NCBI GenBank assembly: GCA_024638815.1 | Contig: JAHEJM010000013.1 | Location: 1-58,012 of the forward strand | Direction of reading: 5' to 3' | DNA from: Acidimicrobiales bacterium | Lineage (GTDB): Bacteria; Actinomycetota; Acidimicrobiia; Acidimicrobiales; SZUA-35 | Length of the DNA stretch: 58,012 nucleotides | In this document: positions 6,553 through 58,012 of the stretch, piece after piece | Layout of the letters: each line of letters opens with the position of its first letter | Numbering within the stretch: position 1 is the stretch's first letter | Translations under genes and position numbers: made by a program | The notes under the pieces: generated by a model | What the model saw: the letters and a program-made list of their open reading frames with translations, nothing else | Told to the model about the DNA's origin: nothing | Databases searched by the model: none

Positions 6553-7784
6553 AGCGGTAGCTCCAGCGTGATTCGGGTTCCCTTGCCGGGGCTGGAACGG
6601 ATGTCGAACTGGTAGCGGTTGCCGTAGAGGCGCTCGAGGCGCTCATGGATGTTCCGCAGTCCCACGCCGTGACCCTCGGGTGAGTCGTAGGTTCCGGTGG
6701 CCACCTCGGTCAGAAGCTCGCTGTCCATTCCCACCCCATCGTCTCGTACTCCGATCCGAATTGACCCGGCAAGGGGATCCACACGGGCCCGCAAGCCGAG
6801 GGTGCCCCCGCCCGGCTTCGGCGCGATCCCGTGTTTCACCGCGTTCTCGACAAGTGGTTGGATGATGAGCACGGGAACGCTGGTGGCCAGAACTTGAGGA
6901 TCGATATCGTAGTGGATGTTCAGCCGGTCGTCGAAGCGTGCCTGTTCCAGACTCAGGTAGGTCCGGACGAAGAAGTACTCATGGGCGAACTCGGCGAAGT
7001 GCCCCTCCTGCTGGGTGGCATAGCGGAAGAAGTCGGCAAGGCGCTGCAGCAGCTGACGGGCTTCGTCGGGATCGGTTCTGCTCTTGGAGGCGATCGTGTT
7101 CAAGGTGTTGAACAGAAAGTGGGGGTTGATCTGAGCCCGTAGGGCATCGAGCCTGGCATCGGCCGCCAGCTGCGCCTTCTCGGTCAGCTCGGCGATCTCG
7201 ATGTGGAGGGATATCAGGTTGGCCACGGCGTCGATCCGTTCCACCGGTGGGGTGTCGTCGGCCTCGAAGCGGGCGGTGATCGATCCGATGATTCGCTCAT
7301 CGAGCCGAAGAGGTATGGCCAAGACCAACTCGTCATCACTGAGGCCGCGAACCGAGTGCCCGACTTTCATCGCCGTGCGACCGGGCTCACTCATCTCACC
7401 ATCGGTACCCACACCGGCGGTTCCCAGGACCCGGCCGGTGTCGGTGATCTCCACCGCTTTGCCCCCGGTGAGCGGCAGCAACTGCTTGGCCAGTCGGGCT
7501 GCGGTGTCCTCGGTGAGACCCTCCCGGAAGGCGGGTAGGGTGCGGTTGACCAGGGCCAGGGGGTCACCGGGGGAGGAGTCGAGCGTGGCCGCCGACAGCC
7601 CGCCACGGCGACGGGGAACCCGTATCAGCGAGGGGTAGCTCCCGAGAAGGGCGACGGTCAGGGCGACGCCCGTCAGCACGGTGGGTGCCGTCTGCAGCGG
7701 TGTCGACGGTACCGTCTGGGTTCCCAGCCAGACCAGGAGCCAGATCACCACCACGCCGCCGATCAGGGGAGCCGTGCTCTTCAC
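6549..7784 (-). CDS. LytS/YehU-type sensor histidine kinase
   Basis: LRAQINPHFLFNTLN H-box, QPLVENAVKHG, DDGVG, GVGLRNI; two N-terminal TMs; GTG start at 7784 chosen after the upstream stop. Confidence 0.92.
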   Translation of the reverse strand: MKSTAPLIGGVVVIWLLVWLGTQTVPSTPLQTAPTVLTGVALTVALLGSYPSLIRVPRRRGGLSAATLDSSPGDPLALVNRTLPAFREGLTEDTAARLAKQLLPLTGGKAVEITDTGRVLGTAGVGTDGEMSEPGRTAMKVGHSVRGLSDDELVLAIPLRLDERIIGSITARFEADDTPPVERIDAVANLISLHIEIAELTEKAQLAADARLDALRAQINPHFLFNTLNTIASKSRTDPDEARQLLQRLADFFRYATQQEGHFAEFAHEYFFVRTYLSLEQARFDDRLNIHYDIDPQVLATSVPVLIIQPLVENAVKHGIAPKPGGGTLGLRARVDPLAGSIRIGVRDDGVGMDSELLTEVATGTYDSPEGHGVGLRNIHERLERLYGNRYQFDIRSSPGKGTRITLELPL

Positions 7785-7800
7785 TGCCTTGGGACCACCG

Positions 7801-9498
7801 TCACGATCGTCGGACCCACCACGACGTCGAGGCCGGTCGCCATTCCGCTCCTGACTCGACCGTGACCCGGGCCAAACGTTCGGCGTTGCGATCACCGGCC
7901 GATCCGTGCATGGCCATCCACTTGGTGGCCAGATCGGGGACCGGTCGGGTGGCCAGCGACACCGCCATCATCAGCGTCACCACCCCCGGGCCGAGAATGA
8001 CGGTGGGCGTCTGAAACAGGGTCGATACACCGTCCCCCAGAAGGCCGACGGTGACCGCCAGAAGTCCGGCGATGGCGCCGACCACCATCCCCACGGCCAC
8101 ACCGGCGGCCGTTATCCTCCGGGACCAGATGGCCAGGAGAAGGGCCGGGGTCAGTGTGCACCCGGCTACAGCGAAGGCGGTGGTGACGAGGCTGGCCACC
8201 ACCGAGGGGACCGAACCGGTGAATCGTGCCGGATTCAGCACCATGGCCGAGATGGCGGCCAGCACCGTCATGACCACCACCGCCAGCTGGCCGGCCCGAA
8301 GGGCCTCGACCCGATTTGCCTGCGGGTTGACGTAGCGCTCGTAGAGGTCGTGGCCCCACGACACCGACGATGCCAGCAACAGCCCGCCGATCGTCGACAT
8401 GATGGCCAGCAGCGCTCCGGTGGTGACGGTCGACAGTCCGACTTCGCCCCCGTAGACCCGACCCAGGGCCAGCAGGGCATGTTCCGGAGTCTTCAGCACA
8501 CCCTGGACCGTCATCGACTCGAGCCAGGCTTCGTCCCGGGTCTGCAACACCGACCGGGCCGCGGTTCCGACCATGACCGCGGCGGCGTAGAACACGCCGA
8601 TCAGAGCGATGACCCAGACCGTCGTCATGCGGGCGGCCCGCCCGGTGGGCGAGGTGAAGAACCGGTTCATGACATGGGGCAATCCGGCCGTGCCGAAGAC
8701 CAGGGTCACCATGAGGGCGAACTGGCCGATGCCGTTGTAGCGTGCTCCCGGCTCGGCGAACCGGGCGGGAAGACCGGTGATTCGATTATCGGTGGCGGTC
8801 AGGGTGCTGTTCGGCTCGAGCCCGTCGGGGTTGAGCATGGGTTGGGCGTTCAATTCGGCCACGGCCGAACCGTAGGAGAAGCCGTCGGCCACCAGAGCGA
8901 GCGAAATCCAGACCAGGATGCCGAGCAGCACGATGAACTGGAGCGCCTGATTCCAGGTGGTCCCCCGCATACCGCCGATGACGACCAGAAACCCGGTCAG
9001 CACGGTCGAGGCCACGATGCCGGTGGAGTAAGGGGTCAAGCCCGGTAGGGCGATGTCGGTGAACAACTCCCAGGTCAGACCACCGCCGACGGCCTGAGGG
9101 ACAAGGTAGGCGAGAATGATGATCTGGGTCACGACAACGGCGATGATGCGGACGGTCTCCGATTCGAAGCGACGGCCGAGAAAGTCGGGGATAGAACGGT
9201 CGCCGAAACGGCGAAGCGGGGCAGCGATGAACAGCAGCACCGGCAGAAACCCGGCGGCGAATCCGGTGGCGTACCACGCCCCGTCCAGACCGACGGCGTA
9301 GACCGCGGCCGCTACCCCGAGAAAGGAGGCGGCCGACACGTAGTCACCGCAGATGGCGCAGGCGTTGGTGATCACACCGACGCGCCGACCGGCCAGCTGG
9401 AAATCGACTGCTGTCCTCGTACTTCGCAATCGAGCCAGGACGCTGACCGCCAAGGCAACCAGGACGGCGACGAGCAGGATGGTGAATCGGCTGGTCAC
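7801..9498 (-). CDS. Sodium:solute symporter (ActP-like SSS family)
   Basis: GDYVSAASFLG, AAPLRRFG, GGMRGTTW.Q, FGTAGLPHV..RFFT; GTG start overlaps the upstream stop (GTGA). Confidence 0.9.
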   Translation of the reverse strand: MTSRFTILLVAVLVALAVSVLARLRSTRTAVDFQLAGRRVGVITNACAICGDYVSAASFLGVAAAVYAVGLDGAWYATGFAAGFLPVLLFIAAPLRRFGDRSIPDFLGRRFESETVRIIAVVVTQIIILAYLVPQAVGGGLTWELFTDIALPGLTPYSTGIVASTVLTGFLVVIGGMRGTTWNQALQFIVLLGILVWISLALVADGFSYGSAVAELNAQPMLNPDGLEPNSTLTATDNRITGLPARFAEPGARYNGIGQFALMVTLVFGTAGLPHVMNRFFTSPTGRAARMTTVWVIALIGVFYAAAVMVGTAARSVLQTRDEAWLESMTVQGVLKTPEHALLALGRVYGGEVGLSTVTTGALLAIMSTIGGLLLASSVSWGHDLYERYVNPQANRVEALRAGQLAVVVMTVLAAISAMVLNPARFTGSVPSVVASLVTTAFAVAGCTLTPALLLAIWSRRITAAGVAVGMVVGAIAGLLAVTVGLLGDGVSTLFQTPTVILGPGVVTLMMAVSLATRPVPDLATKWMAMHGSAGDRNAERLARVTVESGAEWRPASTSWWVRRS

Positions 9499-13223: not shown

Positions 13224-14408
13224 ATGAAGACCTGGATGAAGCTGCTTGCGTTTCTGGCAGCATTCGCCATCGTGGTGGCGGCCTGCGGATCGGACGACGA
13301 TGAGTCGACCGATGCCGGTGAGGACGCTGAGACAACCGAGACCACCGAGGCGACTGAGACGACCGAGACCACCGAGGCGACCGAGGAGACCGAAGCGACT
13401 GAGACGACCGAGGGAGAGGCGGCCGGGGACTTCACCCCGGTCAAGGCCTGCTTCGTCACCGATGACGCCGGCGTCGACGACCGTAGCTTCAACGCACTCG
13501 GATGGAAGGGTGTGAACGATGCCGTTACCAGTGGTGCGGCCCAACCCGATCCCATCCTGCTCGAATCCACCAGCGAGGCGGACTATCAACCTCACGTCGA
13601 GACCTGTCTGGCCGAGGGCGCAGAACACATCATCACTTCCGGATTCAAGTTGGCCGACACCACCGGTCAGTTCGCCGAGCAGAACCCGGATGTTCAGTGG
13701 ACGATCATCGACTTCGGGTCGCTTGGGCCCAACGTGACGGGTTTGGAGTACCAGACCGATGAGGCTGCCTTCGCCGCCGGCTACCTGGCCGCCGGTGTCA
13801 CCGAGACCGGTGTCGTAGCCGTCTACGGCGGTGAGAACATTCCCACCGTGTCGATCTTCCTCGACGGTTTCGCCCGAGGCGTCAACCACCACAACGAGGC
13901 CAAGGGTACATCGGTTAGCGTGCTCGGGTGGGACGTCGATGGACAAGAGGGAACCATGACCGGCACGTTCAACCCCGCCGATCCGCTGGTCCGGGCAACC
14001 TGCGAGAGCCAGATCGATGAGGGTGCGGACATCATTCTGCCCGTCGGCGGGGCGATCAACCTTCCGTGCGGAACGGCCATCCAGGACCGGGGCATCGAAG
14101 GAGCGTTGATCGGCGTCGACGCCGACGCCTTCGAGGCCGCGCCACCCGAGTTCCAGGACTTGTGGCTGACCTCGGTTCTCAAGGGAATCGACATCCAGAC
14201 CCAGCGGTCGATCGAGGCCCATGCTTCAGGTCAGCCCCTCGGCGGCGCAAGCTTCGTCGGGAACCTGGAGAACGAGGCGGTCGGTCTGGCCCCCTTCCAC
14301 TCGTGGGAGGACCGGGTGTCGGCCGAACTGGCCGATGAGACGACTCAGGTGCTCGAGGACATCAAGAGTGGCGCTATCACCTGGGAGAAATTCGCCGTAG
14401 GAGGCTGA
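13224..14408 (+). CDS. BMP-family nucleoside ABC transporter substrate-binding lipoprotein
   Basis: SD AGGAG, lipobox VAAC, Thr/Glu-rich linker, G.DDRSFN..GW.G, EAAFAAGYLAA, IGVD.D, LTSVLK. Confidence 0.92.
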   Translation: MKTWMKLLAFLAAFAIVVAACGSDDDESTDAGEDAETTETTEATETTETTEATEETEATETTEGEAAGDFTPVKACFVTDDAGVDDRSFNALGWKGVNDAVTSGAAQPDPILLESTSEADYQPHVETCLAEGAEHIITSGFKLADTTGQFAEQNPDVQWTIIDFGSLGPNVTGLEYQTDEAAFAAGYLAAGVTETGVVAVYGGENIPTVSIFLDGFARGVNHHNEAKGTSVSVLGWDVDGQEGTMTGTFNPADPLVRATCESQIDEGADIILPVGGAINLPCGTAIQDRGIEGALIGVDADAFEAAPPEFQDLWLTSVLKGIDIQTQRSIEAHASGQPLGGASFVGNLENEAVGLAPFHSWEDRVSAELADETTQVLEDIKSGAITWEKFAVGG

Positions 14409-30684: not shown

Positions 30685-32418
30685 ATGGGTTGGCTTTTCG
30701 GAACGATTGCGCTGGCGTTGCTGCTCTGCTTCGTACTCGGGCTCATCCTGGGATTGCTGTGGTGGCTGTGGCGCCGCCGGGGCGAGAGTGCAGAATTCGA
30801 GCGACGTCGCCTGGAGGCCGAGGCCGAGGCCGACCGTCTACGGTTGCGGGTCAACTCGCTCACGCAGGTGGAGGCAAAGGCGGAGGAGCTGCGAGCCGAG
30901 TTGGACGAGGTCCGGCTCACCGTCAATCGGGTTCCGACGCTGGAGTCCGCCATGCAAAGCTTCAAGTCGAAGGCCGACCTCGTGCCCGACCTGGAGCAGC
31001 AGGTGATACGCCTGCGGAAGCGGGCCGATCGGGCCGATGAACTCGAATCCGAGCTGGCCTCGCTTCGAGCTGAGGCCGGCAAGGTGCCCGACCTGGAAGC
31101 GACGATCGTCGACCTGCGGGCAGATGCCGATCGGGCCACGACTTTGGAGACGCAGATGGTCGCTCTTCGCGGCAAGGCCGATCAGGTCGACGGTCTACGT
31201 GTGGAGCTGGAGGGGGTGCGGATCGAGGCGGCCAAGGTCGGCGATCTCGACAGCCGGGTCTCCGAGCTCAACATCGAATTGGACGAATCCCGGGAGCTGG
31301 CCGGACTCGTGAACGGGCTCGAGGTCGAACTCTCGGAGGCCAAGGCCGAGACGGCGCGCCTCGCCGGGCTCGAGGCCGAGATCGCCTCGCTGCGGGGCGG
31401 GCTGGAAACGACCCGTGGGGAACTGGCCTCGGCCCGGGCCGAGGCGGCGGAGCTGGAAAGGCGCAACAAGGAGATCCAGACCCTCACCGCACGAGTCGGT
31501 GATGTGGAGTCCAGCCGGCACCAGGCGGCGTCTCGAGCCCTGGAGGCGGGCAAGCTGGCCGAGGATCTGAGATCTCGACTGGCTGCGGCCGAGAAGACGG
31601 CGGCCCTGGTCCCGGAGCGGGACCGCACCATCGATGACCTTCGGGCACGTCTCGAGGTAGCCCAGGAGGTGGCTCGTCAGGCCGACCAGGCGTCCATGGC
31701 GTCAGAGGCGACCGAGGGGGTGGAGGCGGTCAACGTGATGGGCGGGACCGGATCGGCGGCGAAGGCCGAGCCCTCCCGGGCGTCGTGGCAAACAGGCATC
31801 ACGGATCTGGGCACGCCGGGGGCCGATCATCGTGACGATCTCAAGCGGATTCGCGGCATAGGTCCGGTCATGGAGAAGACGCTGAACAGTTTCGGTATCC
31901 AGACCTGGGAGCAGGTGGCGGCCTTCACTCCCGAAGACGTGGCCGAAGTAAGCGAGGTCATCGACGCGTTCCCCGGTCGCATCGAGCGCGACGACTGGAT
32001 CGGCGGGGCGCAACGGTTGCTCGATCAGGGCCACGTACCGGGAGAGGACACCTCGGCAGGAGAGACCAAGCCCACAAAGAAGGAGACGGGGGACAACAGG
32101 GGTGAGGTTCCGTCGTGGGCCGAGGGCACGACCAGCCTCGGTACCCCGGGAGCCGCCCACAAGGACGACCTCAAGGTGGTGAATGGCATCGGTCCGGTCA
32201 TGGAGAAGACGCTGAACGGTTTCGGTATTCAGACCTGGGAGCAGCTGGCGGCGTTCGAGAAGGCCGACATCGACAAGGTCACTGAGGCCATCGACGCCTT
32301 CCCCGGCCGCATCGAGCGTGACCGGTGGGTGCCTCAGGCCAAGGATCTGATCGAACGGTTCCCGCTTCGCACCCCCTATGACCGGCCGACCCGGAAGACC
32401 TATCTGAACGAGGTCTGA
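30685..32418 (+). CDS. Membrane-anchored coiled-coil protein with two C-terminal helix-hairpin-helix (DUF4332-like) modules
   Basis: N-terminal TM, long coiled coil, two copies of DDLK.I/V.GIGPVMEKTLN.FGI.TWEQ.AAF...GRIERD.W. Confidence 0.82.
   Translation: MGWLFGTIALALLLCFVLGLILGLLWWLWRRRGESAEFERRRLEAEAEADRLRLRVNSLTQVEAKAEELRAELDEVRLTVNRVPTLESAMQSFKSKADLVPDLEQQVIRLRKRADRADELESELASLRAEAGKVPDLEATIVDLRADADRATTLETQMVALRGKADQVDGLRVELEGVRIEAAKVGDLDSRVSELNIELDESRELAGLVNGLEVELSEAKAETARLAGLEAEIASLRGGLETTRGELASARAEAAELERRNKEIQTLTARVGDVESSRHQAASRALEAGKLAEDLRSRLAAAEKTAALVPERDRTIDDLRARLEVAQEVARQADQASMASEATEGVEAVNVMGGTGSAAKAEPSRASWQTGITDLGTPGADHRDDLKRIRGIGPVMEKTLNSFGIQTWEQVAAFTPEDVAEVSEVIDAFPGRIERDDWIGGAQRLLDQGHVPGEDTSAGETKPTKKETGDNRGEVPSWAEGTTSLGTPGAAHKDDLKVVNGIGPVMEKTLNGFGIQTWEQLAAFEKADIDKVTEAIDAFPGRIERDRWVPQAKDLIERFPLRTPYDRPTRKTYLNEV
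31786..32330 (+). repeat. Intragenic duplication (~215 bp, 330-bp period)
   Basis: GGTCCGGTCATGGAGAAGACGCTGAAC identical at 31861 and 32191. Confidence 0.9.
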
Positions 32419-51990: not shown

Positions 51991-52007
51991 TTGCGAACAG
52001 TTCGCAA
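51991..52007. promoter_or_regulatory. Perfect 8-1-8 palindrome, putative Fur-family operator
   Basis: TTGCGAAC-A-GTTCGCAA 30 nt upstream of the cbiM start, directly after a Fur-family gene. Confidence 0.7.
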
Positions 52008-52047
52008 TAACATGGTAAGAGCCCAGGGAGTCTGGGCGTGTCCGGGG

Positions 52048-52470
52048 TCAGGGCCGGCAGCTCGGACACAACCCCCGGACCACGATCTCGATGTGCTGGG
52101 GCTGGAAGTCGTGGCCCGAGATCAGGTGCTCCTCGATCTGGCTGACCAGCGTGCCGACATGGTGATCGATGGTCCCGCACGACGTGCAGACCAGATGGAA
52201 GTGCTCATCGGGATGGGCCGGCTCCCAGTAGCTGACCTCGGACGGTCCCAAACGGGACTCCCGCACCAGCCCGAGATCCCGGAACAGGGCCAGTGATCGA
52301 TAGATCGAGGCCAGATTGACGCTCGGATCGGACTCGGCCACTCGTTCGGCCAGCTGCTCAACGGTCACGTGATCGTCGAGGTCGACCAGGGCCTGCCACA
52401 CGAGACGGCGCGGTCCGGTGGCCCGATGGCCGTGGTCGTGGAGACGTTCGTCGATGGAGCGGTTGGTCAT
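52048..52470 (-). CDS. Fur-family metalloregulator
   Basis: G.R.T..R, H.T.EQ, ASIYRSL, HFHLVCTSCG, GLCPSC. Confidence 0.92.
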   Translation of the reverse strand: MTNRSIDERLHDHGHRATGPRRLVWQALVDLDDHVTVEQLAERVAESDPSVNLASIYRSLALFRDLGLVRESRLGPSEVSYWEPAHPDEHFHLVCTSCGTIDHHVGTLVSQIEEHLISGHDFQPQHIEIVVRGLCPSCRP

Positions 52471-52494
52471 GGCAGATTAGGGCACAATGGAACC

Positions 52495-52746
52495 ATGTCA
52501 GATCTTGAGACGCTACCGGTTACCGAGGAAATCGTCGATCCCCGACTTGACGACCCCCTGCTCGAGGATGGGGACCATGAGCGGTTTGCCCACTATGTGA
52601 AGAAGGACAAGATCTTGTCCAGCGCGGTGGAGGGAACGACGGTCCGGGCGCTGTGCGGCAAGAAATGGGTGCCGAACCGTGATCCCAAGAAGTTCCCGGT
52701 CTGTCCCGAGTGCAAGGAGATCTACGAGATGCTCCGAGGGGAGTGA
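52495..52746 (+). CDS. DUF3039 Zn-finger-like small protein
   Basis: GDHERFAHYV.K.KI..SA..G..V.ALCGK.WVP.RDP..FPVCPECKEIY. Confidence 0.92.
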   Translation: MSDLETLPVTEEIVDPRLDDPLLEDGDHERFAHYVKKDKILSSAVEGTTVRALCGKKWVPNRDPKKFPVCPECKEIYEMLRGE

Positions 52747-52747
52747 C

Positions 52748-53911
52748 TTGGCCGACCGGCCCCGGATGATCGTCGACTGCGACCCCGGGCATGACGACGC
52801 TGTGGCCCTGGTGGTTGCCGCCCACTTCGGCGACCTGGTTGCCATCACCACGGTGGGCGGCAACGCCCCACTCATCGACGTCACCAACAACGCACTGCTC
52901 ACCTGCCAGCTCTTCGGTATCGACGCCCCGGTTCACGCCGGATCGACTCGACCCCTGGTGGCCGAACCCCGGCATGCTCCCGAGGTCCATGGTGTCGGTG
53001 GCTTCGACGGGCCGACCCTGCCGCCACTGAATCGCTCGGTGGCATCTCATGACGCCGTCGAGTTCTTGATCGAGACCATCAGGGCGGAGGAGGGTCTGTG
53101 GCTGATTCCGACCGGTCCACTCACCAATGTGGCCCTCGTGTTCCGCACGGCTCCCGATGTGGCCGGGCGGCTGGCCGGAGTCAGCTTCATGGGTGGCTCG
53201 GCCACCGTGGGCAATCACACACCGGTGGCCGAGTTCAACGCCCTGGTCGATCCCGAGGCCATGTCGGTCGTCCTGGACTCGGGGGCCAGGATCATCATGT
53301 CCGGACTCGATCTCACCTACCAGTTCCCGGTCGACGACACCCTGGCCATGCACCTTGGGGCGGTGGCCCGGCCTCGACGGGATGGTCCGGTGGTGAATCC
53401 AGGGGCCCTGCTACTGGCCGATCTGGTGGCCAACTACCTTGATCAGCTCGAACGGTTGACCGGCCTGCGCCTGGGGGGACTGCACGATCCGTGCGCGGTG
53501 CTGGCCGTCACCCATCCCAGTGTGGTGTCGACCTCCATGCGCCATGTCCAGGTCGAGCTGGCCGGCACATTGACCAGGGGGATGACCGTGGTCGACCAGC
53601 GCAGGGGGGAGCCGACGGCCAACCGTGGCCGACCCAATGTCGCCCATGGCCACACCCTCGATCACCGGCGGGCCCTGTCGCTGGTCATGGATGCCATCAA
53701 GGCCAAAGGGGCCGTCTCCGGCGACCCGGCTTCCGCAACGTCGCACTCGAGCAACTCCACACCGCTTGGCCCATGGAGTCCATCGACACGCTCATCCACG
53801 CCTTCGGAGCCTGGGCCCAACTCGATGCCATCCCAACCGGCACCCGGCACGCCATCGAGACCACCATCCGGAAACAGGCAACCGCCCACCAATCCGACGA
53901 CGGTCTCCTAA
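52748..53911 (+). CDS. Inosine/uridine-preferring nucleoside hydrolase with an aberrant C-terminal extension
   Basis: DCDPGHDD, GGN, TGPLTNVA, MGG, AEFN..VDPEA, LHDP; last ~65 aa are Ser/Pro-rich off-frame-like sequence. Confidence 0.88.
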   Translation: MADRPRMIVDCDPGHDDAVALVVAAHFGDLVAITTVGGNAPLIDVTNNALLTCQLFGIDAPVHAGSTRPLVAEPRHAPEVHGVGGFDGPTLPPLNRSVASHDAVEFLIETIRAEEGLWLIPTGPLTNVALVFRTAPDVAGRLAGVSFMGGSATVGNHTPVAEFNALVDPEAMSVVLDSGARIIMSGLDLTYQFPVDDTLAMHLGAVARPRRDGPVVNPGALLLADLVANYLDQLERLTGLRLGGLHDPCAVLAVTHPSVVSTSMRHVQVELAGTLTRGMTVVDQRRGEPTANRGRPNVAHGHTLDHRRALSLVMDAIKAKGAVSGDPASATSHSSNSTPLGPWSPSTRSSTPSEPGPNSMPSQPAPGTPSRPPSGNRQPPTNPTTVS

Positions 53912-53949
53912 TCCCCAACCCCATGCTCATGATCACCGCCACCACCTGA
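53712..53949 (+). pseudogene. Orphan C-terminal gene fragment, methyltransferase-tail-like
   Basis: Alternative frame LRRPGFRNVALEQLHTAW...IPNPMLMITATT* is protein-like but has no N-terminus. Confidence 0.45.
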
Positions 53950-54076
53950 CCTGCCACTTGGTCGGACCGGGTCATCCCGCGCTGCCCCGAGCGTAGCGAC
54001 TGGTGGCTGATCGACGACCGCCAGGTTCTCCCCCGCGGTGCGCCGACATCTGAGTGCTGGATCGACACTGCAGCGG

Positions 54077-54104
54077 GGACCCGATAATGCTCACTATCGT
54101 CGGG
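54077..54104 (+). repeat. dif/XerC-arm-like site 1
   Basis: GGACCCGATAA-TGCTCA-CTATCGTCGGG (11-6-11 layout); CCCGATAATGCTCAC recurs at 56901. Confidence 0.5.
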
Positions 54105-54209
54105 CGGCCGGCACAACGCTGCGAAGCTACGGCCGACAGCTCCAATGCCGTACCAACATCCAATCCGGCACCTATCGCGCACGTCGGAATGCTCAGGATT
54201 ATGGACGCC

Positions 54210-54289
54210 GACCGGGCAGTCGTCGAGCTGGGAAACGCTCGTCGCACCCTGCGCGGTCGCGTTCTCGCGTGCCCCGGGCGTCCCGTATC
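54210..54289. repeat. ~80-bp hairpin repeat A, copy 1
   Basis: GTCGTCGAGCTGGGAAACGCTCGTCGCACCCTGCGCGGTCGCGTTCTCG. Confidence 0.85.
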
Positions 54290-54670
54290 TCAGTCGTACG
54301 GCAGCTCCTCCGGCTGACAGCTGACGTAGTCCGGGCTCGGTAAGCTCGTGAAGCGAACGGCCTGGATCGTGGTTCGGCCGTCGAGCAGGGCCCTGGCTAC
54401 TCGATGCATCCCATCCATGACCCGGCCGTCGGGGCCGAGGATGATTGGGTACTGCGTATCGACATCTTGAATGAGGTGGACGTGATCGACGACCGCTCGA
54501 ACGGTCGGACGACGGAGTCCGTCGTCGAACCAGTAGACGGAGTCGACCTCCTCGATCGAGTCGAGACTGACATCCACGATCGGCAGCTCGGCCGTCAGCT
54601 CGATAAGCCGGTCAACGTCCCAAGCATCAAGCCCATCTCGACCCGGCCAGAAGTGGTACTGCTTCCGCAT
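54290..54670 (-). CDS. Small ParB/sulfiredoxin-like domain protein
   Basis: YPIILGPDGRVMDGMHRVARA motif. Confidence 0.75.
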   Translation of the reverse strand: MRKQYHFWPGRDGLDAWDVDRLIELTAELPIVDVSLDSIEEVDSVYWFDDGLRRPTVRAVVDHVHLIQDVDTQYPIILGPDGRVMDGMHRVARALLDGRTTIQAVRFTSLPSPDYVSCQPEELPYD

Positions 54671-54700
54671 GGGATCAGTCTGTCGGTCAACGAGTCGTAA

Positions 54701-54734
54701 CGGCACTCCTGGCTCGCCCGAGAACACCCGGGGC
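54701..54734. repeat. Repeat B, copy 1
   Basis: CGGCACTCCTGGCTCGCCCGAGAAC; matches 55442. Confidence 0.65.
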
Positions 54735-55003
54735 CACATGGTGGCGACGGACTTCCGATGGGTTACGGCCTCAAATGGGACTGCCATACCAATCTGAGCG
54801 CCCACACAGGCGAGAACGGCATACCACGACTGCCGTGCTGAGAAGTGTTCATCCTGCGGTCCAAGGCCATGCCTGAAGTCGGCTCCGCTGTGGTCCAGAG
54901 CTGCTGATCAGGACCCGTCGAGGTCTCCTCGCCGCCGTCCGAGCCAAGCCGGACAACAGCACCCGACGAAGTCCCGGTATCGCTCGACTGGCACGATATT
55001 GCC

Positions 55004-55486
55004 ATGGCGTCGGAGATGCAGAGAACAATCACGGTTTGAGACATCGGAATCCTGCTAGTGGTGACCGCACCGTTTACCGCACTCTTGAGCTTTGCGGCCC
55101 TTCGCGTGCTCGTGGACGAAGATCGCCTGGAGGGCGCCGGCGGACCCACGATCTGGGGATGGGCGACCATGGCACTGCCAGCAACGGCCGGAGTTGCTCT
55201 CTTCGTTGCCGGGACTCTGCGGCCGTCTTCCGTGAGTGATCACCACCTCACGGTCATCACAGGTGCCGCCGCCGTCGTTTCTCTGACACTCGGTCTCGCC
55301 GCAATTCTGGTCGCCGGTCCGGGCGACGCTTCGATCGGTGGTGGTTTACTTGTCCTGGTCGCACTCGCTGGCATCGTGGTCCATCGCAATCGAACGGCGT
55401 GGTTCTGGCCCTCGCAACTGTGTCGGGTCGGAGCACGCACACAGCACCCCTGGCCCGCCCGAGAACGACGGGTGCAGGTCCGCTGA
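55004..55486 (+). pseudogene. Small membrane protein with an in-frame TGA at 55037 and a 3' end running into repeat B
   Basis: MASEMQRTITV*DIGILLVVTAPF..., four TMs, DASIGGG motif. Confidence 0.5.
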
Positions 55487-55583
55487 TGCCGCTGACGGTG
55501 ACGAGCAGGCGGTCGTCGAGCGGGGGAACGCTCATCGCACTCTGCGTGGTCTCGTTCCCGTGCGCTCGAACCACTCCGGATCG
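55442..55583. repeat. Repeat B copy 2 (55442-55475) joined to repeat A copy 2 (55503-55583)
   Basis: CAGCACCCCTGGCCCGCCCGAGAAC ... GTCGTCGAGCGGGGGAACGCTCATCGCACTCTGCGTGGTCTCGTTCCCG. Confidence 0.85.
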
Positions 55584-55603
55584 CCGGTTCATCAGCGCGG
55601 TGC

Positions 55604-56227
55604 TCATGGCCCAAGGGTCGTCGTTGGGACCGATGGTGGGACAGTCGTCGGGCCGGGGCGAGCTACAACGGTCGTCGTCGGGGCGGGCGGAGATCTCGGC
55701 GTCGGGGCTTGATACCAGGGGCAGCCAACTGCTGCCGTATTGCCGACCAGCCACCAGAAGCCGACGACAGCAATGGCACCTGCTCCGACCGCGATGCCGG
55801 GTAGAAGCTCGCCAGGCCTTGAGATGGCGATAGCGACAGCAGCCACCGCCACCAATGCGACAGCTGGAGCCGCTCGCATCGCGTCCAATCCAACGTTGTG
55901 CTCGTAGCAAGCGGACCAGGAGGCGATGGCGAGTGCCGATCCGCTTGCGTAGGAGGCGACGAGACCCGCTCCAGCCTTGACCGGCGAGACAGAGAGTCGC
56001 CGCCAGATGAACGTGGCACCGAGCCAGGCGATCAGGACCATGCTCGCAGCAACCACAAGAAAGATGACCCCAATCGGCGTGGTCCAAGCATCGGTGCCGC
56101 CAGAGACCACGCCAATGCCTATGAGAACAAGCCATGCGCCACCGCCGGCAATAGGGACCGCAGCCAGGGCAGCGGCGGTCGTCGACAGCAGCCCGAGGTA
56201 CTGGAGCTGCCTTACGAGGACGCTCAT
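55604..56227 (-). CDS. Hypothetical membrane protein with Pro/Thr-rich tail
   Basis: Five hydrophobic segments; ATG 56227 preceded by AAGGTGG. Confidence 0.6.
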   Translation of the reverse strand: MSVLVRQLQYLGLLSTTAAALAAVPIAGGGAWLVLIGIGVVSGGTDAWTTPIGVIFLVVAASMVLIAWLGATFIWRRLSVSPVKAGAGLVASYASGSALAIASWSACYEHNVGLDAMRAAPAVALVAVAAVAIAISRPGELLPGIAVGAGAIAVVGFWWLVGNTAAVGCPWYQAPTPRSPPAPTTTVVARPGPTTVPPSVPTTTLGP

Positions 56228-56393
56228 CAACCGCCACCTTGCAGGACCACATCGTTCCAAGAACCTGGGGTCGCCGATCGTCCACTGACGGGAATGAGCT
56301 ACGCCTAGGACGCAAAGATACGGCGAGGATGAACGGCACCAGTGCCGTGCGCGGTATCACCGGCGGTTAAGCTGCCCTGCCACCGACCGTGGC

Positions 56394-56473
56394 GACCAGG
56401 CGTGCGTCGAGCCGGTAACGCTCATCGCACCCTGCGTGGTCTCGTTTCCGACTGTCTGAGGCGTCCGGGATCG
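56394..56473. repeat. ~80-bp hairpin repeat A, copy 3
   Basis: CGTCGAGCCGGTAACGCTCATCGCACCCTGCGTGGTCTCGTTTCCG. Confidence 0.85.
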
Positions 56474-56521
56474 ATGCTGCCGGTTACTAGCCGACCGAGA
56501 TCGCGGCCCCTTGCTGGGCAA

Positions 56522-56776
56522 TCAGCGGAGCCAGTTGATGGCCACGACCGCCACCGCTCCTGTCACCGTGCCCCACGTGACCCACAGGGCGTAGCGCCGC
56601 TCGGCCTCTTCAGAGTTGTGCAGCACCGTCCACAACAGAGCCAACGACGGAGCAATGAGGAAGGCGAGCGTGAACTCGAGGCTGTCCGGACGAATCAGCC
56701 CGTAGACCAGCAAGATCGCATTGGCGAGTGCCACCCCCAGTGCGATGCGGACCCCTTCAGATCGCTGCTTCATCAT
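56522..56776 (-). CDS. Small hypothetical 3-TM protein
   Basis: MMKQRSEGVRIALGVALANAILL..., three hydrophobic segments. Confidence 0.55.
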   Translation of the reverse strand: MMKQRSEGVRIALGVALANAILLVYGLIRPDSLEFTLAFLIAPSLALLWTVLHNSEEAERRYALWVTWGTVTGAVAVVAINWLR

Positions 56777-56886
56777 GGGCTGAAGGTAGCATCTGGCCAG
56801 CGAACGATCCGGCCAGAACGCTCTGCCCGACTGCCCATAACCGACAACCTGATCAGCAACTTGGTGATCGATGATCACTTTGACCC

Positions 56887-56915
56887 TGGGATCCGTGCCG
56901 CCCGATAATGCTCAC
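56887..56915 (+). repeat. Repeat D joined to dif/XerC-arm-like site 2
   Basis: TGGGATCCGTGCCG (recurs at 57993) followed by CCCGATAATGCTCAC (recurs at 54080). Confidence 0.55.
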
Positions 56916-57059
56916 AGCCCACGCCGTGATCAACAGACCCCGCTCAGATCCGAAGCGCCAGAGAACGACTCCAACAGGCGTCTTGGCGGCCCGACTACGA
57001 GGCCATTCTCGAGATCACGATCGCGCCGCTCCCAAGGCGGCGGGCGCAGCGGATTCTGC

Positions 57060-57896
57060 TCAGCTCGACGGGTTGCTGAGGTGACGCGCCTCCGATGTTG
57101 AGAACCCGAGGCGACCCTTGGTCCACAGCAAGAGACCAAGAGCCATGGTCCAGTACACAATCCCGCGAATGATCTGCCAGTCTTCGCCGCCTGGTAGAAC
57201 GTCGGTGGGACGCTCGAAGAGGTTTTCGATGAGGTTCGTACCTTGATGGAAGAGCATTACCGGGATGACGCTCATCTTCGACTTTGAGTACAGCCACGTC
57301 ATGATGATGGACAGGCCGACGACGCTGACAGAGAACGACACGATGTGTGGTGCGGTACTCGAGTCTGAAGGCAAAGCGAGCAGTGGCAGATGCCAGGCGC
57401 TCCAGATCATCCCGAGCAGGACGCTTGCTACGGCGGGGTGTTGCCTCTCGAGCATCGCCGGCAGTGCAAAGCCACGCCAGCCAGGCTCTTCATTGCCTCC
57501 GAGGAAGAGCGCGGCGATTGGAACGACGATGATGTAGCCGAGCAACGTCGTCTCCCCGCTCACGGCTTCCCCGCCCAGCGAGAGATACAGGCCCTGATCC
57601 AGCAGTCCAACGCCCACAGGCATCAAGACCCAACCAGCGACCAACCAGATGAGACCGATTCGCCACGCGAAGATTCGTCGAAGCCAACGGAGGAGGGATC
57701 CCTTTCCCGCCGCGGAAGTAACAATGATGGCGGAAACGAACGGCCCAAAGCCGCCTACGAGGCTCAGCGCATGAACCTCCCCCGGCTCGCCCCACAGCAG
57801 CTGTGCCGGGATGAACACCGCCCAGCTGATCAGAAAAGTGAGTACGAAGAACGCGGCGAGCTGATGGCTCGACAGCCAATGCGATAGCGACCTCAT
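57060..57896 (-). CDS. CPBP (CAAX/Abi) family intramembrane glutamic endopeptidase
   Basis: EEPGWRG, WSAWHLP, FHQGTN motifs; multiple TMs; SD GAGGA. Confidence 0.92.
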   Translation of the reverse strand: MRSLSHWLSSHQLAAFFVLTFLISWAVFIPAQLLWGEPGEVHALSLVGGFGPFVSAIIVTSAAGKGSLLRWLRRIFAWRIGLIWLVAGWVLMPVGVGLLDQGLYLSLGGEAVSGETTLLGYIIVVPIAALFLGGNEEPGWRGFALPAMLERQHPAVASVLLGMIWSAWHLPLLALPSDSSTAPHIVSFSVSVVGLSIIMTWLYSKSKMSVIPVMLFHQGTNLIENLFERPTDVLPGGEDWQIIRGIVYWTMALGLLLWTKGRLGFSTSEARHLSNPSS

Positions 57897-58012
57897 CGGG
57901 ATCCTCGGATCATGCGCATCTACGTTGCACCCGTTGAACCTCGCTTCGTGAGCCCCTGCTGGGGGGGGTCACCGTGATCGGCTCATCCGATGTGGGACCC
58001 GTGCCGTCCCCG

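Follow-up and report, generated by a model that had tools for sequence, protein, structure and literature searches.

The right-hand end of a 58,012-nt stretch of DNA from an Acidimicrobiales bacterium (the window; contig JAHEJM010000013.1 of assembly GCA_024638815.1) carries copies of a repeated unit of about 200 nt that lie between small accessory genes. The window is the whole of contig C190 of its genome (here G000; 66% GC, 227 contigs), and its positions 53950 to 58012 had been described, in an earlier interpretation made from the letters alone (the sequence-only reading), as a cassette-like array of unrelated genes punctuated by a hairpin repeat, repeat A. Through comparison with related genomes, we found that the repeat belongs to a family of longer, co-oriented units, that the array is part of an inserted island, that its gene modules are shuffled between strains, and that breakpoints recur at the unit ends. 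In its logic the array resembles an integron, or a system of tandem accretion, but it is not an integron. We tentatively prefer, with rather less than even confidence, the reading that gene modules accrete at the unit, which would serve them as a junction or recombination site at the level of the DNA, and we favor it because of the co-orientation of the units, their confinement to variable DNA, the exchange of modules and the recurrent joint at the right-hand unit end. The unit is discrete and non-coding, and in strain-variable islands it marks where small accessory-gene modules are joined. If the preferred reading is correct, it would work directly as DNA, as a site for attachment or joining. 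Modules would be added, lost and exchanged beside it, preferentially at its right end (...ACGC|CGG), and repeated events in one direction would build co-oriented arrays.

Repeat A occurs three times on one strand, at 54231-54289, 55524-55582 and 56414-56472, with 71-76% identity (repeat families D6 and D11). Here the sequence-only reading was accurate, since repeat finding, alignment and a shuffle control all agree on three co-oriented copies at these places: the 30-nt core, with at most 3 mismatches, occurs 3 times in the window and not once in 100 shuffles, the aligned copies have a mean column identity of 78% across 122 columns, and their nhmmer E-values range from 4e-20 to 4e-22. The repeat is, however, not about 80 nt long, as had been thought. 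An alignment of 40 distinct full-length copies and their flanks yielded a unit of about 200 nt that extends from a TCGATAAYG box to ACGCCGG, and the three copies are the right halves of this longer unit. Leftward from the original core, conservation runs through GCCACCGACGGTGACGACC, the GAACACCGG block and a CGGCAC block to the TCGATAAYG box. Read from the left, the unit comprises the TCGATAAYG box (which is good in roughly half of the copies), about 45 variable nt, the CGGCAC block, the GCGC.CGGGAACACCGG block, a spacer of about 15 nt, GCCACCGACGGTGACGACCAGGCGGTCGTCGAG, the original core, a variable short hairpin region and, finally, ACGCCGG. A fourth copy in the window consists of the left part alone (Table 1). 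From 54000 on, the window is slightly less GC-rich than the genome (0.61-0.657 per 1-kb window versus 0.660), in keeping with the lower GC content previously remarked upon for the array.

A profile hidden Markov model (HMM) built from the three window copies found 11 copies on 8 contigs of G000 at E<=1.2e-16, the next match being at 0.025. The repeat evidently breaks the assembly, given that 4 of the 11 copies sit within about 500 nt of a contig end. When the genus was scanned with a sequence-only covariance model, 116 matches were obtained, spread over 16 of the 25 genomes and numbering as many as 26 in a single one, with left-only and right-only copies being frequent; the mean column identity over 37 copies is 59%. 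Outside the genus, 13 of 140 further genomes from the order gave a single, weak match each, and nothing stronger was seen. A metagenome scan with the core pattern returned 13 loci, 3 of them with real units and all on short contigs, which is not enough to compare modules. A separate core-pattern match, in G045, lacked an HMM match and was rejected as a unit. A weak partial copy at C189 8293-8334, near the island edge on a second contig of G000, has an E-value of 0.066 and is too weak to build on. Two genomes from different families, G019 and G141, have the unit alone in common (about 97% identity over about 210 nt, in L047 G019:C100 and L136 G141:C247), while their flanks are unrelated; the match reflects horizontal transfer or else a cross-binning artifact. 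As far as the literature was searched, we found nothing on such repeats in these bacteria.

Neighboring units almost always point the same way: in a hand count of pairs located on one contig at a distance of 10 kb or less, 30 of 31 were on the same strand, the exception being in G001:C3. Gene direction does not explain this. Among 47 units that have their right end and an open reading frame (ORF) to the right, the nearest such ORF within 300 nt presents a convergent 3′ end in 14 cases and a co-directional 5′ start in 18, and in 15 there is none, as counted with a crude ORF caller based on a GC3 filter, which missed, for example, the gene to the right of unit A2. The unit is always intergenic, without a fixed relation to neighboring genes. 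It had been proposed that each repeat lies just past the stop codon of a gene; in the window, ORFs to the right of the copies do stop 0, 20 and 48 nt from the copy ends as originally drawn, but this placement fails across the 47 units. The lack of any fixed position relative to genes, which had been named in advance as a sign of a scattered repeat rather than an array, therefore holds in part.

The array itself belongs to an island. In G001, a relative with 94% identity, rihA (nucleoside hydrolase) and galE are 0.9 kb apart. In G000, galE and the region beyond it lie on another contig, C189, from position 8362 on (92.7% identity to G001). Because G001 joins both flanks, we take window positions 53727-58012 and C189 1-8361, with a gap between them, to be one island of at least 12.6 kb. 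This island holds 6 units, all on the plus strand, and nearly all of its genes are on the minus strand. On its right, an X1 contig continues 1.6 kb beyond the end of the window. The island's cargo includes an AbiEii/AbiEi pair (on C189), a hydrolase and a CAAX-protease-like gene, together with small membrane-like ORFs that match no family. The sequence-only reading of an array of unrelated accessory genes with co-oriented repeats is therefore borne out, with the addition that the array varies between strains; gene order, when compared with that of the close relative, was not identical, the island being inserted relative to G001.

At the island joint, 53726, the final few codons of the nucleoside hydrolase gene (RihA/UriH-like, window 52679-53911) have been replaced; in G001 this gene ends a few codons past the joint, and in G000 the frame adds about 60 unrelated codons, to 53911. 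No tRNA gene was found in the window, and an origin of the unit as a tRNA fragment or as an att site at a tRNA was rejected. Two other loci, L085 (G001:C3:922000-941000) and L087 (G010:C27:55000-67013), are islands at tRNA-Gly(GCC) in which an integrase gene adjoins the tRNA gene. Besides VapBC-like pairs and several fragments of integrases, these islands contain partial units, which lie in their interior and not at the tRNA, and the site is an integration hot spot common to two species. At L039 (G010:C48) and L041 (G010:C103), a few kb from units, we noticed by eye, with no family search, gene pairs of a replication initiator and an integrase that look like those of actinomycete integrative elements.

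Gene modules have changed places in several comparisons. The module at 56977-57948, which consists of the CAAX-protease-like gene flanked by 52 nt on its upstream side and 83 nt on its downstream side, has a 93% identical counterpart in G001:C4, where it stands in another context without units. G012 has the stretch 56333-57987 in common with the window (unit A3 from its CGGCAC block, plus two genes) and differs to the left of it; likewise, G002 and G012 have a unit, a gene and a tRNA in common and diverge leftward of that unit. In the X5 strain, contigs were found with the modules 55579-56257 and 56479-57101 beside other neighbors, and at both left joints the right end of a different unit is found. 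At all 4 loci compared with relatives, units lie in strain-specific DNA, and at none of these 4 was a lone unit insertion into a conserved spacer, or an empty site, observed. Joints recur at the right end of the unit. In the form ...CGC|ATGATATG it directly adjoins the start of a recombinase element in G002, G010 and G012, and the same joint occurs in loose ends of X1 and X3; between units of G010 and G022, homology stops at about unit position 205, and the flanks are partly unrelated. These breakpoints may have arisen by site-specific recombination through a recombinase encoded by the host or by the island.

The sequence-only reading had supposed that a recombinase or single-strand transposase encoded outside the window built the array, and had pointed to the sequence to the right of 58012 as a place to look for a tyrosine recombinase. 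Such an enzyme was indeed found on the adjoining contig: C189 47-1096 encodes an Xer-like tyrosine recombinase (Pfam Phage_integrase, 6e-34) that falls below the XerC, XerD and IntI cut-offs. The contig ends beside this gene in G000. However, it belongs to a family that is widespread in Actinomycetota, with several copies in single genomes and many contigs of 2-4 kb. Among the best 80 of 514 confirmed loci (61-93% identity), a relative of a second recombinase adjoins in 53; in G002 and G010 the second tyrosine recombinase gene follows the first, and a third ORF has no Pfam match. The element has a conserved left terminus, ..GATATGCCGGT(G/A)ATCC. A unit is present at 1 of these 80 loci and absent from 79, and, since the family is so widespread and multicopy, the element looks like a transposon of the RIT/Tn554 kind that landed at units. 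We conclude that the C189 recombinase is probably part of an unrelated transposon that favors the same site as the modules do, and as the engine of the array it was rejected.

The tabulation in PMC10214605 lists five groups of tyrosine-recombinase transposons, of which RIT has three recombinases and 34-bp inverted ends. The C189 element is like RIT, Tn554-like, GInt and SE elements in its tandem recombinase genes (in G002 and G010), its several identical copies and its occurrence on short contigs, but two of its genes were recognized as recombinases, in contrast to the three of RIT. In several distant Actinomycetota (L175, L182-L185 and L189), the tandem-recombinase element starts directly after the end, resembling ...TGGGTCGACTGG, of what appears to be an insertion sequence (IS) transposase gene. 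Such starts at IS-like ends hint at a preferred target other than the unit.

Several observations weigh against a junction or recombination site. We found no recombinase tied to the units. Units are nearly absent from the 80 loci of the C189 recombinase family, the C189 recombinase has relatives (E<=1e-20) in 5 of the 25 genus genomes, and G024, with 26 units, has none; the tyrosine recombinases otherwise located in the neighborhood of arrays, at distances of 1-21 kb, are a mixed set. Nor do the breakpoints fall at one position: besides the right end, they are seen in the spacer and at unit positions of about -12, 41, 53 and 70. Two comparisons tie the unit to the flank on its right; in two more it goes with neither side. 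A module can contain from 1 to 4 genes, which may point either way and in some cases come with regulators of their own, and no circular or excised form of a module was seen. There are also dispersed, decayed single copies, with 7 copies far apart in G018. Two joints that appear to span the array, 54204>56417 in X1 and 54106>56405 in X5, extend only 30 and 28 nt on their shorter side and may derive from other copies, for which reason we have not used them as evidence; stretches of the window that lack cover in X5 were likewise left out.

An alternative is that the unit is a selfish intergenic repeat of the kind of miniature inverted-repeat transposable elements (MITEs) or repetitive extragenic palindromic (REP) sequences, spreading by itself or riding on accessory DNA. 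The shuffling of modules would then be a by-product of homologous recombination between copies of 60-85% similarity, which would serve as portable regions of homology. The lack of a linked recombinase, the scattered left-hand breakpoints, the mixed gene directions, the decayed copies and the match of the unit alone between two genomes are reasons to rank this alternative close behind the preferred reading, although we judge it somewhat unlikely. Like MITEs and REP sequences (including bacterial interspersed mosaic elements [BIMEs] moved by REP-associated tyrosine transposases [RAYTs]), the unit is a lineage-specific, genus-restricted intergenic repeat with palindromic parts and an imperfectly palindromic consensus, present in tens of copies of which many are decayed or partial. 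The absence of a fixed gene relation, the single dispersed copies in G018, the breakpoints scattered over the unit and the near-identical unit in wholly different flanks of G019 and G141 all fit such a repeat. What does not fit is, first, that the Y1/RAYT transposase family (PF01797) was found in 0 of the 25 genus genomes, the control being positive in 6 of 14 known genomes, so that this is no REP/RAYT system, and that neither terminal inverted repeats nor target duplications were visible by eye beside the 40 aligned copies or where the G019/G141 match ends. Second, the strong co-orientation of the units, their confinement to strain-variable DNA and the want of an empty site or lone insertion at the 4 loci compared are unlike such repeats. 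Third, copies as diverged as these would be poor substrates for efficient homologous exchange, and the identical recombinase-element joint stands beside three different units. In Neisseria, intergenic mosaic elements and arrays of dRS3 repeats bracket variable segments, and these repeats are both exchange substrates and insertion targets for tyrosine-recombinase elements; in sequence, length and host, however, these are unrelated to the unit.

Returning to the DNA-level junction, a stronger form of it would be an integron-independent gene-cassette system in Actinomycetota, in which a site of about 200 bp (TCGATAAYG ... ACGC|CGG) plays the part of attC. A recombinase other than IntI would insert and excise promoter-poor modules at the right end of this site and so build co-oriented arrays at several chromosomal hot spots. 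We consider this specific proposal unlikely. The likeness to integron arrays, and to clusters of attC sites lacking an integrase (CALIN), is considerable, with co-oriented imperfect palindromes between small, unrelated accessory genes that include toxin-antitoxin pairs, content that differs between close strains, assemblies that break at the repeats and one end of the site as a recurrent joint. These features might also suggest a canonical integron that has diverged, or a CALIN, a view that we regard as scarcely credible. The C189 recombinase scores 73.8 bits, in two stretches, on the IntI model TIGR02249, against a cut-off of 265, and IntI above the cut-off was found in 0 of the 25 genus genomes. 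The sequence-only reading had already noted that the sites lack the canonical attC ends, RYYYAAC/GTTRRRY, and the consensus of 37-40 copies confirms this, the flanks being GGnAAC...GTTnCCG with about 24 nt between, so that only AAC/GTT fits attC. The unit lacks an R/L box consensus, includes a long non-palindromic left part within its length of about 200 nt and conserves sequence, not structure; the modules are multigenic and run in both directions. Moreover, a RefSeq survey (PMC9024848) reports Actinobacteria as being without complete integrons. A canonical integron is excluded on three tested features.

A further comparison is with Xer-dependent IMEX and pdif modules. The TCGATAAYG box resembles the left arm of the dif site of the genus, ..GCTGCATAA TGACGS TTATGYC.., but units have no second arm and lack the ATAA-N6-TTAT architecture. 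Likely dif sites of the form TGCTGCATAA-N6-TTATGYCTGAAAC occur once per genome, except for two candidates in G018. The unit as a dif-like site was rejected, its box matching the left dif arm over 6-7 bases only.

The bulged hairpin proposed in the sequence-only reading survives in part. In the consensus, the palindrome is present: with the stems originally drawn plus GACGACC/GGTCGTC, 76.5% of cells are paired in 37 copies, compared with 23-50% when the partners are slid. However, neither pairing nor covariation exceeds that of shuffles (76.5% versus 75.8%, reached by 108 of 500, and 0.157 versus 0.144, reached by 57 of 500), and the covariation of alternative stems is no better than that of shuffles either. 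Folded as DNA, the three window copies have z-scores of -1.2 to -2.05, and the range over single-copy folds is -0.2 to -2.05. Since palindromes occur in the consensus but their pairing is at shuffle level, selection appears to act on sequence and not on pairing, as would be expected for DNA that is bound by protein.

These results bear also on the possibility that the unit is a plus-strand small RNA gene or transcript element (an insulator, terminator or stabilizer between genes acquired independently) with GATAAT/GATAAC as its -10 element, which, judged from sequence features, would be quite improbable. An intergenic unit of about 200 nt would suit such a gene, several stems are possible, and some plus-strand departures are G-U pairs only. 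Of 2 promoter-like sites found (0.9 expected), one, TTGACC-18-GATAAT, is at the A4 box. Yet the RNAalifold consensus energy is only -6.9 kcal/mol, the alignments show no conserved -35 element, and a good box is missing from about half of the copies, with left-only and right-only copies being common. Rfam 15, which the sequence-only reading had suggested consulting, gave 0 matches at E<=5 over 52000-58012 on both strands, so that no known RNA family matches the region of repeat A.

An origin of the unit as a fragment of a coding gene was likewise considered and rejected. Because of a 1-nt indel, the sole widely open plus-strand frame continues in one of two different frames downstream, each in about half of the copies, and its GC2 of about 0.6 and GC3 of about 0.7 are unlike those of real genes here. 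One particular candidate was leucyl aminopeptidase (pepA), suggested by a covariance-model match to the pepA gene of G063. Comparison of 9 unit translations with the G063 PepA protein by hhalign gave a probability of 57% (E 1.1e-4). None of the 9 matches any Pfam peptidase family, and the pepA gene of G000 itself is without similarity to the unit (E 0.24); this origin is unproven.

The features of the island part of the window are collected in Table 1. The label "ParB-like," given earlier to the ORF beside unit A1, finds no support in Pfam or NCBIfam.

Table 1. Features between 53727 and 57948 of the window, and likely dif sites in the genus
Feature	Position	Strand	Remarks
Island left edge	53727..54081	.	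Homology to G001 (94% identity) and to the X5 strain ends at 53726, past which the G001 sequence is unrelated and an X5 contig shows a loose end
Orphan C-terminal gene fragment	53728-53949	+	Weak HEPN-like match only, E 0.12
Weak inverted partial copy, left part of unit core	54002..54043	-	14.4 bits, E 1.4e-4, model positions 6-47; covers the GACGACC..GGTCGTC palindrome region
Unit A1	54082..54300	+	Unit HMM 54158-54289, E 7e-23; CCCGATAATG box 54082-54096, core 54198-54300, right end diverged
171-aa ORF, formerly "ParB-like"	54290..54805	-	0 families matched
142-aa hydrophobic ORF	55058..55486	+	0 families; gene status uncertain; ends just left of A2 core
Unit A2	55420..55595	+	Unit HMM 55420-55590, E 2.6e-36; neatest bulged hairpin among copies
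Membrane-like ORF	55604..56260	-	Likely start ATG at 56227
Unit A3	56309..56483	+	Unit HMM 56309-56473, E 1.9e-36; from ~56333 rightward, with two genes to the right, common to G012 (92.6% identity)
118-aa membrane-like ORF	56522..56878	-	Weak DUF6232 match, E 0.028
Unit A4, left part only, CCCGATAATGCTCAC box to GAGAACGAC block	56901..56976	+	hmmalign; box overlapped by promoter-like TTGACC-18-GATAAT
Module with Rce1/CAAX-protease-like gene (57060-57896)	56977..57948	-	PF02517, E 4.7e-13
Likely dif sites	G000 C59 ~7490-7530; G001:C1:302964; G003:C13:3538862; G007:C1:4832074; G018:C3:263731, C4:4870834		

Two further repeats lie elsewhere in the window. At 13319-13419 there are about ten tandem 9-nt repeats (CGAGACCAC-like, family D1), which probably encode a Thr/Glu-rich repeat, and at 31781-32322 direct repeats occur as two families with a spacing of 330 nt (76% identity over 146 nt for D2 and 79% over 57 nt for D18), which suggest a tandemly duplicated domain or gene segment.

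Should the unit prove to be MITE-like and nothing else, it would be a new repeat family that explains the poor assembly at variable islands, a useful but ordinary result. If, on the other hand, the units are true recombination sites, they would represent a second, independently evolved way to stockpile and shuffle accessory genes, in a phylum that is essentially without integrons, and the unit model would then serve as a sequence handle with which to trace, in metagenomes, the mobile genes of these Acidimicrobiia-like bacteria from sediment.

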